From the NCBI GenBank assembly GCA_964473865.1, contig CAYYQN010000003.1, positions 2,545 through 66,544 on the forward strand: 64,000 nucleotides of DNA. Direction: 5' to 3'. The position numbers and the translations under genes are program-made. The first letter of the stretch is position 1; every line of letters begins with the position of its first letter. Shown here in pieces: positions 52,913 to 61,232 of this stretch. The DNA is from an uncultured bacterium. GTDB lineage: Bacteria; Eisenbacteria; RBG-16-71-46; CAIMUX01. The notes beneath the pieces are model-generated. The model was not told the DNA's origin. It made no database searches and saw only the letters and a program-made list of their open reading frames with translations.

Positions 52913-53134
52913 GACCCCTCCCGGCACCACAAGGATCCGCTGAATGCGTCCCCTGTTGTGGTCCGCGACCGTCCCGACCCAGGGTTGTCCCCCTGACTCA
53001 TCTCTTCCGCGACCCGGAGGCAATGCGTCCGGGAGGCCCGGAATCCTGTCCCGGACGGCTTCTGACGCCAGCCCGTCTGAAACCCCGTGGAGCACATTCG
53101 GTGCCCGCACAGGATAGGAAAGGTTTCCCCTCAA

Positions 53135-53470: not shown

Positions 53471-54853
53471 TCACTTGCCCTGTTCGAGACTCGAGGTGAG
53501 ATCCTTGCGGATTTGTTCAAGCGTTGCGGAAAAGGCGGGATCTCGGGATGCCTTGTCCGCGATTCGAGAGCAGGCGTAGAGCACGGTGCTGTGGTCCCGG
53601 TTGCCGAAGCGGCGTCCGATCTCGACAAGGGTCAACGGAGTGGACTGTTTCGTGAGATACATGGCAACCTGTCGAGCGAACGCAACGGAGCTTGTCCGAC
53701 GTCTCCCCCGAAGAGATTCCGGTGGAAGCTCAAAGTGAATCGCCACAACCTTTTGAATGTCAGTAACATCCGGGATTCGTTGTTGCTGTCCGCGAATGTA
53801 GTCGCCCAGCACCTCCCGAGCCAGATCGATGGTGATGTCACTTCCAGTGAGGGACCCGAGAGCCGAGAGCCGAACCAGGGACCCTTCCAGTTCCCGGATG
53901 TTGGAGCGAATGTTCTCAGCGATGAAGAAGAGCACGGGGTCCGGAATGGCGACCTGGGAGCGTTCGGCCTTTCTTCGAAGAATCGCAACCCGGGTTTCCA
54001 GGTCCGGCGGCTGGATGTCGGTGACAAGACCCCAGTTGAACCTGGAGATCAGCCTCTCCTCCAGATCCGGGATGTCCTTGGGAGCGCGGTCACTCGTGAC
54101 CACGACCTGCCTGTTGGCGTCGTATAGGCTGTTAAATGTATGAAAGAACTCCTCTTGCGTGGATTCCTTCCCCGACATGAATTGGATGTCATCAACCAGC
54201 AGCAGATCCAGATTCCGGTACCGCTCCCGAAACTCCAGGGTGTGTCCACGCTGAATCGACTCGATCATCTCATTCATGAACTTCTCGGAAGAGACGTAGT
54301 AGACCCGCGCCGATGGGGTACGCTGCTTCACCTCGAAGCCAATCGCCTGCATGATATGGGTTTTGCCCAGTCCTACGCCTCCATGGATGAAGAGCGGATT
54401 GTAGACTCGGGCTGGATCCTGGGCCACGGCCCGGCACGCTGCGGACGTGAATTCGTTACCCCGACCGACGACGAAGTTGTCGAACGTGAACTGGGACTTC
54501 AGGTTAGAGGCTGAGATCACCGCTGATGCGCGGGGTGATTCCGGTACGGTCGTCCGCTCCGGCCCGCGGCTGGAAGACCGCGAGAACTTGATGTCGTAGC
54601 CATCGGCTACGGAGAAGCGGATTTCCGGAGTCTGGCCGAAGTGGTCTGAGATTGTTGATCTCAAAAGCGGCAAGTTGTGCTCCTCAAACCAGTCGACAAA
54701 GAAGGGGTTCGGGACTTCGAGAAGGACGCGTTCGGCAGTCACCTCCAGAGGGCGAATGGGCCGAAACCACGTGACAAACTTCTGTTCAGAGACGGAATTT
54801 CGCAAGACTTCGAGAATCTTGGACCACGTGTCAACAGCCGCCGACTCGTGCAA
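53471..54853 (-). CDS. dnaA: chromosomal replication initiator protein
   Basis: Domain I WSKILEVLRNSVSEQKFVTWFRP. AAA+ GGVGLGKTHIMQAIG (Walker A), LLLVDDIQF (Walker B), sensor/arginine finger. C-terminal DnaA-box-binding HTH (VAMYLTKQSTPLTLVEIGRRFGNRDHSTVLYA). Confidence 0.9.
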   Translation of the reverse strand: MHESAAVDTWSKILEVLRNSVSEQKFVTWFRPIRPLEVTAERVLLEVPNPFFVDWFEEHNLPLLRSTISDHFGQTPEIRFSVADGYDIKFSRSSSRGPERTTVPESPRASAVISASNLKSQFTFDNFVVGRGNEFTSAACRAVAQDPARVYNPLFIHGGVGLGKTHIMQAIGFEVKQRTPSARVYYVSSEKFMNEMIESIQRGHTLEFRERYRNLDLLLVDDIQFMSGKESTQEEFFHTFNSLYDANRQVVVTSDRAPKDIPDLEERLISRFNWGLVTDIQPPDLETRVAILRRKAERSQVAIPDPVLFFIAENIRSNIRELEGSLVRLSALGSLTGSDITIDLAREVLGDYIRGQQQRIPDVTDIQKVVAIHFELPPESLRGRRRTSSVAFARQVAMYLTKQSTPLTLVEIGRRFGNRDHSTVLYACSRIADKASRDPAFSATLEQIRKDLTSSLEQGK

Positions 54854-54887
54854 GGTTCAGACCCCCCAAAGCGGATGCGCAACAATG

Positions 54888-55337
54888 TTGTCCACAAAAT
54901 TACCCACATTGGATCACGGGGAGTAATCGAAAGCGAACTCAGGTCCAGAGCACTGGAACGCTCTTTCCGCGTCGGAACCGCACAATGTTGTCCACCGGCA
55001 GGTGTCGGCACAACCAGGTGAGGAACAAACGGTTGCGGCGAGGCCAATGCGGTTCTCCACAGGAAAGCCCAACAACTCCCCGAAAAAACGGTGGACCGCC
55101 TCGGGGGGCCGGTACAATCTCCTGCCTCCGAGGAGAGCCGGCGACAAAGGTTATTCACAACCCCCCGCGAGATCCGAAAGCGGTGCGCATCCTAGCACGC
55201 ACCCCAGAGAGGGACAATCGGAATCTGTCGGCGGGAACATATTCCCCAATGTGAAGCGGGACAGACGATTCCGGGCCGGACCGTCCCGATTCTCGCCTCT
55301 TGGGGCGAAAACGCTTTCAGTGGCGCGCTGTGGAGAA
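54888..55337. promoter_or_regulatory. DnaA-box cluster in the dnaA-rpmH divergent intergenic region (candidate oriC / dnaA autoregulatory region)
   Basis: 9-mers close to TTATCCACA: TTGTCCACA 54888-54896, TTACCCACA 54900-54908, TTGTCCACC 54988-54996, TTCTCCACA 55053-55061, TTATTCACA 55151-55159, TGTGGAGAA 55329-55337 (reverse). The leading strand switches exactly here. Confidence 0.6.
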
Positions 55338-55483
55338 CGACGGAATCACGAACACCATAAAAAACGGGCGCAAAATGCGCAGTTGACCTCGGCCCGGGCC
55401 GTCCGGTAGCCTCGCCACGTATCCGAAGGTCTGACCAAGACGGCAGCCGCCAACTTGGTCAACGCAGGGAGATGAGGAGATCC

Positions 55484-55621
55484 ATGAAGAGGACATTCCA
55501 GCCACACAACCGGCGGAAGCTCAAGGTGCACGGATTCCGCAAGCGTATGAGCACCGCCAATGGGCGCCGGGTTCTGAAAAGCCGTCGTGCGAAGGGACGG
55601 AAGCGGCTCGTTGTTTCGTGA
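55484..55621 (+). CDS. rpmH: 50S ribosomal protein L34
   Basis: [45 protein letters not shown] (45 aa). It is not in the ORF track because it is short. GGAG RBS. A TTGACC-18-TAGCCT promoter-like element lies upstream. Confidence 0.9.
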
Positions 55622-58000: not shown

Positions 58001-59389
58001 ATGAACAGAGAGAGATTTCGCCGTACTACCGGCCCACTATCCGTTGAGACTGCGGGAAAGACCGTGGACGAGGCGATCCAGGCGGCACTGGGCCGCCTGC
58101 GTGCGCGCCGGGACGAGGTTGATGTCGAGGTCCTGCAGGAGGGCCGAAGCGGCTTGTTTGGGATCGGGTCCCGGGAGGCCAGGGTGCGGGTGCGCCGGCA
58201 TGACCGGACCGAGCCCAAGGCCGAAGGTCGCCCCGAGCGTCGGCCGTCAGTCGGGACTGGAGACTCCGGCGGCCGGCGGGGCCTGCCCGGCGGCCGCCGC
58301 GCGAGTGAGGACATCGCCAGACTGGAGCGGGAAGTCGAGAAGCACCGCACGGCTCGGGGAGCCGGACCGCGCGAGGCCCGTGGTGCCGCCATGGGGTCGA
58401 CGGCGCGATCCGTCGCTCCCACCAGCGGCTCCCGGCGGCGCGAGCCGGTGACTGGAAGTTCTGAGGCGCGGACGTTGCCGGCGCGTGGCGACTCGACCGC
58501 TCCTCGTCGGCGGAGCTCCGGCGGGGGCCGCCCGGTGTCCGAGAGACACACCGAACCGCGAACCACCCCGCCCCCGCGCTCCTCGGTCGCGCGCTCCTCG
58601 GCGCCTCTATCGGAGCCATCCACCCGACCGTCGGCACCCGCCACGGTCGAGCCGTCCGTCCTTGCCGAGTTCGCGCAGGGGATCCTGCGCCGCATGGGAT
58701 ACACCGCGCGCGTGGAGGCCGCTTATACAGACGAAGCCTATGAGGTGAGGATCGACGCCGGCGAGAACAATGAGATCTTGATCGGGAAGAAGGGGGAGAC
58801 TCTGGACGCCCTGCAACATGTCCTGGCCAAGATGGCCAGCCGGGGCCTGGAAGAGCTCCTGCGAGTTCGCGTCGACATCGCCGAGTATCGGCAGAAGCGG
58901 AGCACCGAGTTGTCGGAGCGGGCCCTGGAGATGGCGCGGCAAGTCCTGGAAACCGGCCACGAGATCATCACCGAGCCACTGCCGGCCGCCGAACGACGTT
59001 CCATCCACCGCGCACTTTCGGACCATCCGGAGGTGACGACGCAGAGTCTCGGCGACGGCCAGGTGAAGCCCGTCTGGGTCGGATTGAAGAGCGCGAAGCC
59101 AAGCATGTCCGACGTTGCCCCGGTCGTCGTTCGTCGCGGGGGCGCTTCCCATTCGACCTCCGGCCGGTCCTCGGTCGACTCCCGGGCGCGAGAGCTTCGT
59201 GGGGAAGAGTCAGCGGCAACCGCGCCCGCCCGGTCTGCGACGCCGGCACCGGTCTCATCCGCCGCGCTGGCGCCGCGATCTCTCATCGATCCTTGGGACA
59301 GCACTCCGGCGAACAATGACAAATCGTCCTCCGCGGCGGCACCCGAGTGGGGAAGGCGGCCGAAACCCGCCAAGGGTCGTCGGAAGTGA
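58001..59389 (+). CDS. khpB: Jag/KhpB (R3H-domain RNA-binding protein) with long Arg/Ser/Pro-rich linker
   Basis: An AAGAAGG RBS precedes MNRERFRRTTGPL. Jag-N domain (VDVEVLQEGRSGLFGIGSREARVRV). ~170-aa low-complexity linker. KH domain (ILIGKKGETLDALQHVL). R3H domain (ERRSIHRALSDHPEVTTQSLGDG). Basic tail. The track ORF from 57599 is an upstream read-through across the yidC end. Confidence 0.8.
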   Translation: MNRERFRRTTGPLSVETAGKTVDEAIQAALGRLRARRDEVDVEVLQEGRSGLFGIGSREARVRVRRHDRTEPKAEGRPERRPSVGTGDSGGRRGLPGGRRASEDIARLEREVEKHRTARGAGPREARGAAMGSTARSVAPTSGSRRREPVTGSSEARTLPARGDSTAPRRRSSGGGRPVSERHTEPRTTPPPRSSVARSSAPLSEPSTRPSAPATVEPSVLAEFAQGILRRMGYTARVEAAYTDEAYEVRIDAGENNEILIGKKGETLDALQHVLAKMASRGLEELLRVRVDIAEYRQKRSTELSERALEMARQVLETGHEIITEPLPAAERRSIHRALSDHPEVTTQSLGDGQVKPVWVGLKSAKPSMSDVAPVVVRRGGASHSTSGRSSVDSRARELRGEESAATAPARSATPAPVSSAALAPRSLIDPWDSTPANNDKSSSAAAPEWGRRPKPAKGRRK

Positions 59390-60123
59390 GACCGCGACGC
59401 CGGCGCCGGGGCAATAGCCCGGCACGGCGGCAGCGATTCGGAGAGCCGCGCCGGGGACCGGATCTGGAACCGGACCTGGCGTGGCTTCTTGCTGTGATCG
59501 CCCCCTTCTCGATTCCGTTGGAGCCGCGGGCGCCGGAAAGGATTCGAGCCTTCGCCCGGGAGTTGTTCAGCCGAAGCGAGCGCCTGAACCTGCTGTCCCG
59601 GGCTGATGCCCCCCTGGTCATTCGAAAACACGTGGCGGCGTCGTTGGGTGTGTTCCTGGTCGCGCACCCGACCGGCGGCGAGGAATGGATCGACGTGGGA
59701 ACCGGGGCTGGCTTTCCTGGCCTGATTCTGAAGATTGCGCGGCCGGACCTGCGCATCACGCTGTTGGACTCCGCGCGCAAACGCTGCTTGTTCCTGGAAG
59801 GAGTCGTGAGAAGTCTCGAACTGGGGCGGGTTCCGGTCGTGCCCCAAAGGGTCGAGACTCTTGTGGCACGCGGGGAGGGGTTGGGCCGTTACACCGTGCT
59901 GACTGCGCGCGCGGTCACGTCGCTGGTGGACACGGTTCGGGAGTTCGGCCCTTTGGTTGCGCCAGGCGGACGCATCGTCACGTTCAAGGGACCGCGGTGG
60001 CCGGAGGAGATCCAGACGCTTCGCACCGCCGGCCTGTTGAAGCCGGGCGGGGTTTCGGTAGAGTCCGTCACGCGGATCCCTTGGATGGCTGGGCATCTGG
60101 TGACATTGCGGAAATCCTGCTAA
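59347..60123 (+). CDS. rsmG: 16S rRNA (guanine527-N7)-methyltransferase
   Basis: WIDVGTGAGFPGLILKIARPDLRITLLDSARKRCLFLEGV and LTARAV...VTFKGP are the GidB/RsmG motifs. The true start is probably downstream of the listed ATG, which overlaps the khpB end. Confidence 0.8.
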   Translation: MGKAAETRQGSSEVRPRRRRRGNSPARRQRFGEPRRGPDLEPDLAWLLAVIAPFSIPLEPRAPERIRAFARELFSRSERLNLLSRADAPLVIRKHVAASLGVFLVAHPTGGEEWIDVGTGAGFPGLILKIARPDLRITLLDSARKRCLFLEGVVRSLELGRVPVVPQRVETLVARGEGLGRYTVLTARAVTSLVDTVREFGPLVAPGGRIVTFKGPRWPEEIQTLRTAGLLKPGGVSVESVTRIPWMAGHLVTLRKSC

Positions 60124-60308
60124 TCTGTCGTCAAATATCAAGATAAGCATAAAGTTCCTGGCCTCTTGCGTTGGAGTCCGGACGGCGCATCGGTCGCCTG
60201 ACGGACGTGCGCCGGATTGCGACGATTCTGGGTTGCGAGATCCTCTCCAAAGTAGATAGAAACACAGTAACTTGTTTTTTATAAATAAGATGAACCGAAT
60301 TCCATCTG

Positions 60309-60324
60309 ATGTTCCACGTGGAAC
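60309..60324. promoter_or_regulatory. parS-like palindrome upstream of parA
   Basis: TGTTCCACGTGGAACT versus canonical TGTTTCACGTGAAACA. The core GTTCCACGTGGAAC is a perfect 14-bp palindrome. It lies in an AT-rich island next to a TTGACC-18-TAGTTT promoter-like element (60330-60359). Confidence 0.6.
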
Positions 60325-60470
60325 TTTCGGGTTGACCTGCGCCGCGCGCCGGTGCTAGTTTGCCGCGGGATCGGAAAGAGTCGCTGAACGGCGCCGGCCA
60401 GCGACTCTCCTTCGTGGGCTGTCGGCACACGCGCGGAAGACCGCGAATCTTGGAGGAATCGGGGCGCACG

Positions 60471-61224
<754 letters not shown>

Positions 61225-61232
<8 letters not shown>

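Follow-up and report, generated by a model that had tools for sequence, protein, structure and literature searches.

This locus raises the question of what the 347 bp between rsmG and parA are for. The spacer (60124-60470; 56% G+C content (GC) versus a mean of 65.7%) lies in the window, by which we mean the whole 64-kb stretch of DNA that was analysed. That stretch covers the origin region of a chromosome from Candidatus Eisenbacteria: gyrB, dnaN and dnaA (53471-54853) lie on the minus strand, dnaA is followed by a 631-bp spacer (54854-55484), and then come plus-strand genes in the order rpmH, rnpA, yidD, yidC, jag/khpB, rsmG, parA, parB, a small membrane/coiled-coil open reading frame (ORF) and a bactofilin gene. 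The original prediction had read the rsmG-parA spacer in two ways, as an alternative origin with its DNA-unwinding element or, more conservatively, as the parAB promoter with an autoregulatory parS. The best explanation, in which we have good confidence, is close to the second: an origin-proximal ParB loading site is fused to the parAB promoter, and ParB probably represses its own operon. In kind, this is an ordinary and widely shared feature of origin regions, and our result is the annotation of an element of a known sort.

The loading site is the 16-mer TGTTCCACGTGGAACT at 60310-60325 (parS-1), where ParB is predicted to nucleate. It agrees with the parS consensus TGTTNCACGTGNAACA at 15 of 16 positions, the sole mismatch being position 16, and it contains the perfect 14-bp palindrome GTTCCACGTGGAAC (60311-60324) that had originally been called a parS variant, a call that is borne out here. 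When up to two mismatches are allowed, the consensus is matched in the 64 kb only at parS-1 and at a second site, 61749-61764 (parS-2), against 0.06 matches expected, and none of 100 shuffles reached two matches. parS-2 lies 1439 bp downstream of parS-1, so the earlier count of two ParB loading sites within 1.5 kb also holds, both sites being predicted. As to its place in the chromosome, parS-1 is 7.2 kb from the minimum of the cumulative G-C curve (53086) and ~5 kb from a cluster of DnaA boxes at 54888-55337. By its sequence, its origin-proximal place, its cognate canonical ParB and its conservation, 60310-60325 has the character of a chromosomal parS, and ParB would be expected to bind there. 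We regard it as very likely that the element as a whole is a parS plus the parAB promoter.

The predicted promoter begins 6 nt after parS-1. Its -35 hexamer, TTGACC (60332-60337, plus strand), agrees with the consensus at 5 of 6 positions, and an 18-nt spacer separates it from the -10 hexamer, TAGTTT (60356-60361, plus strand), which agrees at 3 of 6, including the key T1, A2 and T6. The palindrome had been described as standing immediately before TTGACC-18-TAGTTT; the motif is there, but given the 6-nt gap from the 16-mer it is not strictly adjacent. The coordinates implied earlier were off by one or two bases. The -10 lies about 103 nt before the parA ATG, and transcription of parA is predicted to start at ~60368, relative to which parS-1 spans about -59 to -44. 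The pattern TTGAC.-17/18-TAG..T occurs three times in the window (both strands searched) versus 0.2 expected, and all three sites are in spacers upstream of plus-strand operons, beginning with rpmH (55383-55412), parA (60332-60361) and an FGE-sulfatase gene (63355-63383). It is probably the housekeeping promoter type, or consensus, of the lineage. In its hexamers, spacing, conservation and recurrence, 60332-60361 resembles a sigma-70-type promoter.

Conservation was assessed in 11 relatives, which with the window make 12 loci: ten of them (L083-L092, ParA 61-88% identical) came from an exact look-up of ParA homologues, and the eleventh (L001) has a ParB 82% identical to that of the window. The relatives have in common the order yidC-jag-rsmG-spacer-parA-parB-(small ORF or M23 peptidase)-bactofilin. 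Between rsmG and parA, their spacers run from 330 to 1767 bp and are unalignable outside the parS-promoter block. Within that block, all 11 related spacers keep a parS 16-mer at the orthologous place, a gap of 5-6 nt, a -35 of the form TTGMCN (hence 12 of 12 loci) and a spacer of 17-18 nt. A -10 of the form TAGNNT or TACGTT is kept in 10 of the 11 relatives (11 of 12 loci), the exception being L089 with a weak TTTGCT. Across the 12 loci, parS positions 2-4, 6-11 and 13-15 are invariant, and position 1 is free. In an alignment of the six closest loci, the spacer is invariant only at GTTyCACGTGGAACTTTCG, at TTGAC, at TGCTAG and in the region of the ribosome-binding site and start codon. The comparison thus leaves a clean phylogenetic footprint that covers parS, -35 and -10.

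Two relatives carry an extra perfect parS farther upstream in the same spacer (L085, 2779-2794, starting 54 bp before the promoter-proximal site; L092, 2322-2337, 580 bp before it), and the number of parS sites per spacer therefore differs between lineages. A scan of metagenomes by RsmG alignment returned two short contigs, L081 and L082 (65% identity), which end before any parA and have no parS within 411 bp after rsmG, and so have no bearing on its conservation.

The second site, parS-2 (TGTTTCACGTGGAACA, 61749-61764), is a perfect match to TGTTNCACGTGNAACA and lies inside parB, in the part that encodes the HTH_ParB domain, across the codons for V-S-R-G-T. Its codons GTT-TCA-CGT-GGA are all minor ones in the genome, with a joint probability of 1.3e-4 given the amino acids and the local codon usage, and the site occupies the same codon position of parB in 10 of the 11 relatives. 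The rare codons and the fixed codon position together indicate that parS-2 is under selection at the DNA level. The protein that would bind both sites is encoded at 61225-62097 (plus strand, 290 aa). It has the Pfam domains ParB_N, HTH_ParB and ParB_C and the CTP-binding motif GERRLRA, and its closest solved structures are Spo0J of T. thermophilus (1vz0, E=6e-57) and then the ParB proteins of M. xanthus, B. subtilis and C. crescentus; the alignment to 1vz0 takes in the CTP-binding motif, AGERRLRAA. By all these signs, it is a canonical chromosomal ParB. The nearest species-representative genome is the Candidatus Eisenbacteria metagenome-assembled genome L001 (the 82% match given above), and the remaining ParB matches are at most 50% identical.

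In the ParB family, parS is where dimers nucleate; they then bind CTP, form closed clamps and slide outward, and the resulting partition complex is moved by ParA and loads SMC. We propose that the same events take place here. ParB dimers would recognise the parS palindrome via their helix-turn-helix domain, bind CTP, clamp shut and slide onto the adjoining DNA. parS-1 and parS-2, 1.4 kb apart, would then build a partition complex about 5-7 kb from oriC. The promoter would drive parA-parB and probably also the downstream small ORF and the bactofilin gene. Finally, ParB held at or reloading on parS-1 would probably lower parAB transcription, because the alpha C-terminal domains of RNA polymerase dock at -59 to -44, and this would act as negative feedback on ParA and ParB levels. 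The role of both parS sites in loading the partition complex is well supported. Autorepression of parAB by ParB we would put a little short of an even chance. We judge negative feedback to be the most likely added function because deep divergence, which remodelled the rest of the spacer, left the gap of 5-6 bp intact. The conservative form of the original prediction fares accordingly in its two parts: the promoter and the parS are strongly supported by the block conserved in 11 loci, but the word autoregulatory is a deduction from geometry.

B. subtilis, too, has one parS within the coding sequence of parB/spo0J, as parS-2 is here. The B. subtilis Spo0J/parS type (consensus TGTTNCACGTGAAACA, as quoted in PMC4409726) shares with our locus the same 16-bp inverted repeat, an origin-proximal position next to or inside parAB and a canonical CTP-binding ParB. 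It differs in that both half-sites of parS-1 are of the GTTCC type, with T at position 16, and in that two sites are visible in the 64-kb window. In neighbourhood and origin distance, parS-1 resembles parSc of Thermus thermophilus, which lies immediately upstream of parA, at the junction of gidB (rsmG) and parA, ~6 kb from oriC (PMC4409726). parSc, however, falls within the coding sequence of gidB and is the sole chromosomal site, whereas parS-1 is intergenic and fused to a promoter, with a second site in parB.

With regard to regulation, the core of parS-1 is shared by the P. aeruginosa parS, TGTTCCACGTGGAACA. Two parS sites of that organism, parS3 and parS4, are intergenic and origin-proximal, upstream of PA0011 and PA0013, and ParB bound there represses the adjacent promoters (PMC7022226, citing PMC5521831). 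The genes so regulated are not parAB, so there is no feedback loop there. Plasmid par operons of type Ia (P1, F) regulate themselves negatively, in part through the centromere protein (PMC7022226, PMC4010829). In these, the repressor is ParA, acting via an N-terminal domain for DNA binding, which is missing from chromosomal ParAs (PMC7022226); at the parAB promoter here, unlike in type Ia, only ParB could act. The geometry of our site is that of KorB (RK2), a ParB-family CTPase whose palindromic OB operators lie 4-10 bp upstream of the -35 and which represses by occluding RNA polymerase (PMC11790492). The gap at parS-1 (6 bp, and 5-6 bp over the 12 loci) falls within this range, repression being predicted here. 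KorB differs in being a dedicated global regulator of a plasmid that works with KorA or TrbA, and in its operator sequence.

The arrangement extends beyond this phylum. A survey of 80 ParB loci, diverse and drawn from many phyla, found a parS (no more than one mismatch) 0-640 bp upstream of parA in 36 of them. An exact TATAAT is found within 60 nt downstream, on the parAB strand, of 21 of the 98 parS sites of those loci, versus 1.9% of random control windows. Fourteen of these 21 pairs are at a distance of 25-39 nt; the distance in the window is 30 nt. Judged from this survey, parS sites next to the -35 of the parA promoter are widespread and not specific to Eisenbacteria. Many Lachnospiraceae/Blautia and other Firmicutes among the loci L002-L080 have TGTTTCACGTGAAACA and then TATAAT 25-39 nt on, upstream of parA/soj, often with two tandem parS 35-45 bp apart. 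Our literature search, incomplete in its coverage, returned no report of a chromosomal parS at the -35 of a parA promoter, nor of a general autoregulatory architecture, and according to a 2020 review, how parA and parB expression is regulated has received only partial study, in a small number of species (PMC7022226). It is a bolder proposal that the parS/-35 junction is a dedicated autoregulatory operator for ParB across phyla, setting ParA/ParB dosage, and that chromosomal ParB generally represses its own operon; this we put forward tentatively, and on balance it is doubtful.

Several points weigh against a parS-promoter fusion under ParB control. First, position 16 of parS-1 is T and not A (T in 10 of the 12 loci), so the 16-mer is not fully symmetric. 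Second, the -10 is only 3/6 to TATAAT. Because of this, a generic promoter scan of 59900-60700 on both strands, which needs 4/6 matches in the -10, called nothing, and the parAB promoter call consequently rests on conservation and on recurrence in the window, not on a consensus score. Third, a terminator scan of 59900-60700, both strands, found no terminator-like site after rsmG, and without one, read-through from upstream may also feed parAB. Fourth, the parAB1 operon of V. cholerae is not autorepressed, but its promoter, which is inside gidB, has no parS (PMC4010829). Fifth, a chromosomal ParB sitting on parS often leaves nearby genes unaffected; B. subtilis Spo0J has no effect on the genes adjacent to parS, whose expression is unchanged by its spreading (PMC7022226). 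Finally, binding, transcription start and regulation are all inferred in this lineage.

The fifth of these points also favours the alternative that survives best, in which the locus is a centromere only. Here, parS would be a ParB/SMC loading site that lies near a promoter by chance, the clamps would leave quickly, and parAB transcription would be unaffected. Such a reading is consistent as well with V. cholerae, where spreading is a poor guide to silencing (of 20 genes covered, only 2 are silenced; PMC4010829), and with parS-2, whose position in parB means that a parS at this locus needs no promoter context. A mere loading site could drift, however, and in none of the 12 loci does the distance from parS to the -35 leave the range of 5-6 nt, although the spacers, at 330-1767 bp, diverge completely. 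Unrelated phyla, moreover, also show parS sites concentrated 25-39 nt upstream of the parA -10. KorB placed 4 bp upstream of a -35 represses 4-5 fold even if it is unable to close its clamp (PMC11790492). We think it unlikely that parS-1 serves as a centromere alone.

The next two alternatives both depend on the composition of the DNA upstream of parS-1. It had been described as an AT-rich island, and the drop in GC is real (47.5% over 60125-60305 versus 65.7% for the window), but the single island is not. Two patches, each of 31% GC, one directly after the rsmG stop codon (60124-60152) and the other reaching to parS-1 (60245-60309, about -124 to -60 from the predicted start), are split by a 92-bp G+C-rich core (60153-60244) of 64% GC with short inverted repeats. 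Within the second patch, 60246-60305 is the lowest-GC 60-mer of the 64 kb, at 28.3%, the runner-up being 38.3%. None of these three segments is conserved in the relatives. GC over the 70 bp upstream of parS runs from 31% to 70% in the 12 loci and from 37% to 70% in the 11 relatives, where it is mostly somewhat below the genome average, with three exceptions. We treat the upstream AT-rich DNA as a fast-evolving, lineage-variable spacer and not as a DNA-unwinding element, and it may supply an UP-element-like or easily bent context.

Other functions were sought in this DNA. Inspection by eye found no promoter hexamer pair with acceptable spacing on either strand of the AT-rich patch. An Rfam search of the spacer at a permissive E-value returned only the small RNA P17, on the minus strand, at 14.9 bits versus a gathering score of 45 (E=0.28), which leaves the G+C-rich core with no credible match. 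The folding z-score of the spacer is an unremarkable -1.4, and on these two counts a structured RNA was dropped as a candidate. Besides an inverted repeat at 60377-60408, in the predicted 5' untranslated region (UTR) of parA, a repeat search of the spacer gave only short pairs that are probably due to chance.

On the first composition-based alternative, the AT-rich tract would draw a silencing nucleoid protein, and ParB sliding from parS would relieve the silencing of PparA. There is a model for this in VirB, a member of the ParB family that counters H-NS silencing by a CTP-dependent switch from a site upstream of promoters (PMC10770331), and the window does have an extreme AT-rich tract directly upstream of parS, with lesser ones in L001, L086 and L090. 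The tract is absent, though, from L083 (66% GC), L085 (69%) and L087 (70%), which keep the parS-promoter block; no H-NS-like silencer turned up, though none was searched for, and the near-consensus -35 suggests a promoter that is constitutively competent. This explanation is very improbable.

On the second, which comes from the other half of the original prediction, the AT-rich island next to parS would be a DNA-unwinding element belonging either to oriC or to a second origin module. In E. coli, oriC adjoins gidA/gidB. The proposal can also point to the 28% GC of 60246-60305, low enough for a meltable segment, and to the position of the site within the origin-proximal gene block. Four lines of evidence oppose it. 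First, 60124-60470 contains no DnaA box at up to 2 mismatches, at a window-wide density of 1.25 per kb. Second, the skew does not change sign at the site: the cumulative G-C minimum is at 53086, the dnaN-dnaA junction, from where the curve climbs steadily to the end of the window, and GC skew is +0.037 over the 8 kb left of 60280, where an origin would need a negative value. Comparison with the GC-skew origin, which had been suggested as a check, thus goes against an origin here, as the skew is already positive for 7 kb left of the site. Third, all genes from 55.4 to 63 kb, rpmH through rsmG among them, would face replication head-on. Fourth, neither the AT-richness upstream of parS nor the sequence there is conserved. 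The argument from E. coli gidA/gidB does not transfer, as no mnmG/gidA ORF turned up among the genes surveyed and the gene block is next to dnaA. On DnaA boxes, skew, gene orientation and non-conservation, an oriC or second origin in the rsmG-parA spacer was rejected as exceedingly improbable.

The origin most likely lies in the dnaA-rpmH spacer (54854-55484), the best oriC candidate, which has five one-mismatch DnaA boxes at 54888-55337 and 9.5 boxes per kb at up to 2 mismatches. That spacer is 59% GC, without a strongly AT-rich segment, and also holds the promoter-like motif of rpmH. A further group of DnaA-box-like 9-mers lies on the minus strand at 63131-63194, in the spacer between the bactofilin and FGE-sulfatase genes (63037-63500): TCGTCCACA, a perfect TTATCCACA at 63143 and TTGTCCACA at 63186. 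DnaA boxes with 0-1 mismatch are found in 7 of the 11 relatives, in what is by coordinate apparently the equivalent spacer (L001, L083, L084, L085, L087, L088); the box of L087 is near the end of the locus, with no gene called on that side. The cluster at 63131-63194 could be a DnaA-regulated promoter, a site of DnaA titration or reactivation, or a second origin module.

The last alternative, that the palindrome is the operator of another CACGTG-binding regulator or the terminator hairpin of rsmG and not a ParB site, is scarcely credible: although the palindrome is perfect and followed by TTT, and perfect palindromes of at least 14 bp are not rare (nine distinct sites in the window, mostly G+C-rich), the 15/16 match to parS includes G2 and A7, which tell parS from Noc-binding sites, the same 14-mer core recurs inside parB, where a terminator is impossible, the scan of 59900-60700 gave no terminator-like site, and as RNA the stem would have only 5 pairs.

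The genes on either side of the spacer are rsmG and parA. Upstream, the rsmG (gidB) ORF (59347-60123, plus strand; Pfam PF02527 GidB, E=5.5e-34; 80% identical to its L001 orthologue) ends in the stop codon TAA at 60121-60123, and its real start is probably downstream of 59347. Downstream, parA (60471-61232, plus strand) encodes a ParA-type ATPase of 253 aa with matches to the Pfam families AAA_31, CbiA and ParA; the protein is identical to database protein P0001, and its homologues P0046, P0068, P0106 and P0118 carry Eisenbacteria source names, which together with L001 are the basis for assigning the window to Eisenbacteria. The parB ATG overlaps the parA stop codon. The predicted 5' UTR of parA (60368-60470, plus strand, ~103 nt) has a ribosome-binding site, GGAGG, at 60452-60456. 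The inverted repeat at 60377-60408 consists of 16-nt arms, AGAGTCGCTGAACGGC and GCCGGCCAGCGACTCT, that are 88% complementary and would lie at about +10 to +41. The relatives have not kept the sequence of this repeat; in the close ones, the ribosome-binding site and start codon lie in a conserved region.

Beyond parB (62125-63036 in the window), a bactofilin gene is found 3' of parAB in 10 of 10 loci checked (L083-L092). Between parB and the bactofilin gene there is a small membrane/coiled-coil ORF in close relatives and an M23 peptidase gene in more distant ones; in L090, none was called. The neighbourhood of parAB and bactofilin resembles the BacNOP-PadC scaffold of M. xanthus, which positions ParABS (PMC5703909).

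In part, then, the outcome is routine annotation: for an uncultured phylum, it maps the parAB promoter together with the centromere sites, and it argues that oriC is beside dnaA. More generally, parS and the -35 have kept their spacing of 5-6 bp across deep divergence, and a similar spacing is seen in unrelated phyla, which suggests that ParB feedback on its own operon may be common and under-studied. The levels of ParA and ParB are known to be dosage-sensitive, and ParB feedback may be one way of setting them. The conserved, operator-like geometry makes autoregulation by ParB directly testable.

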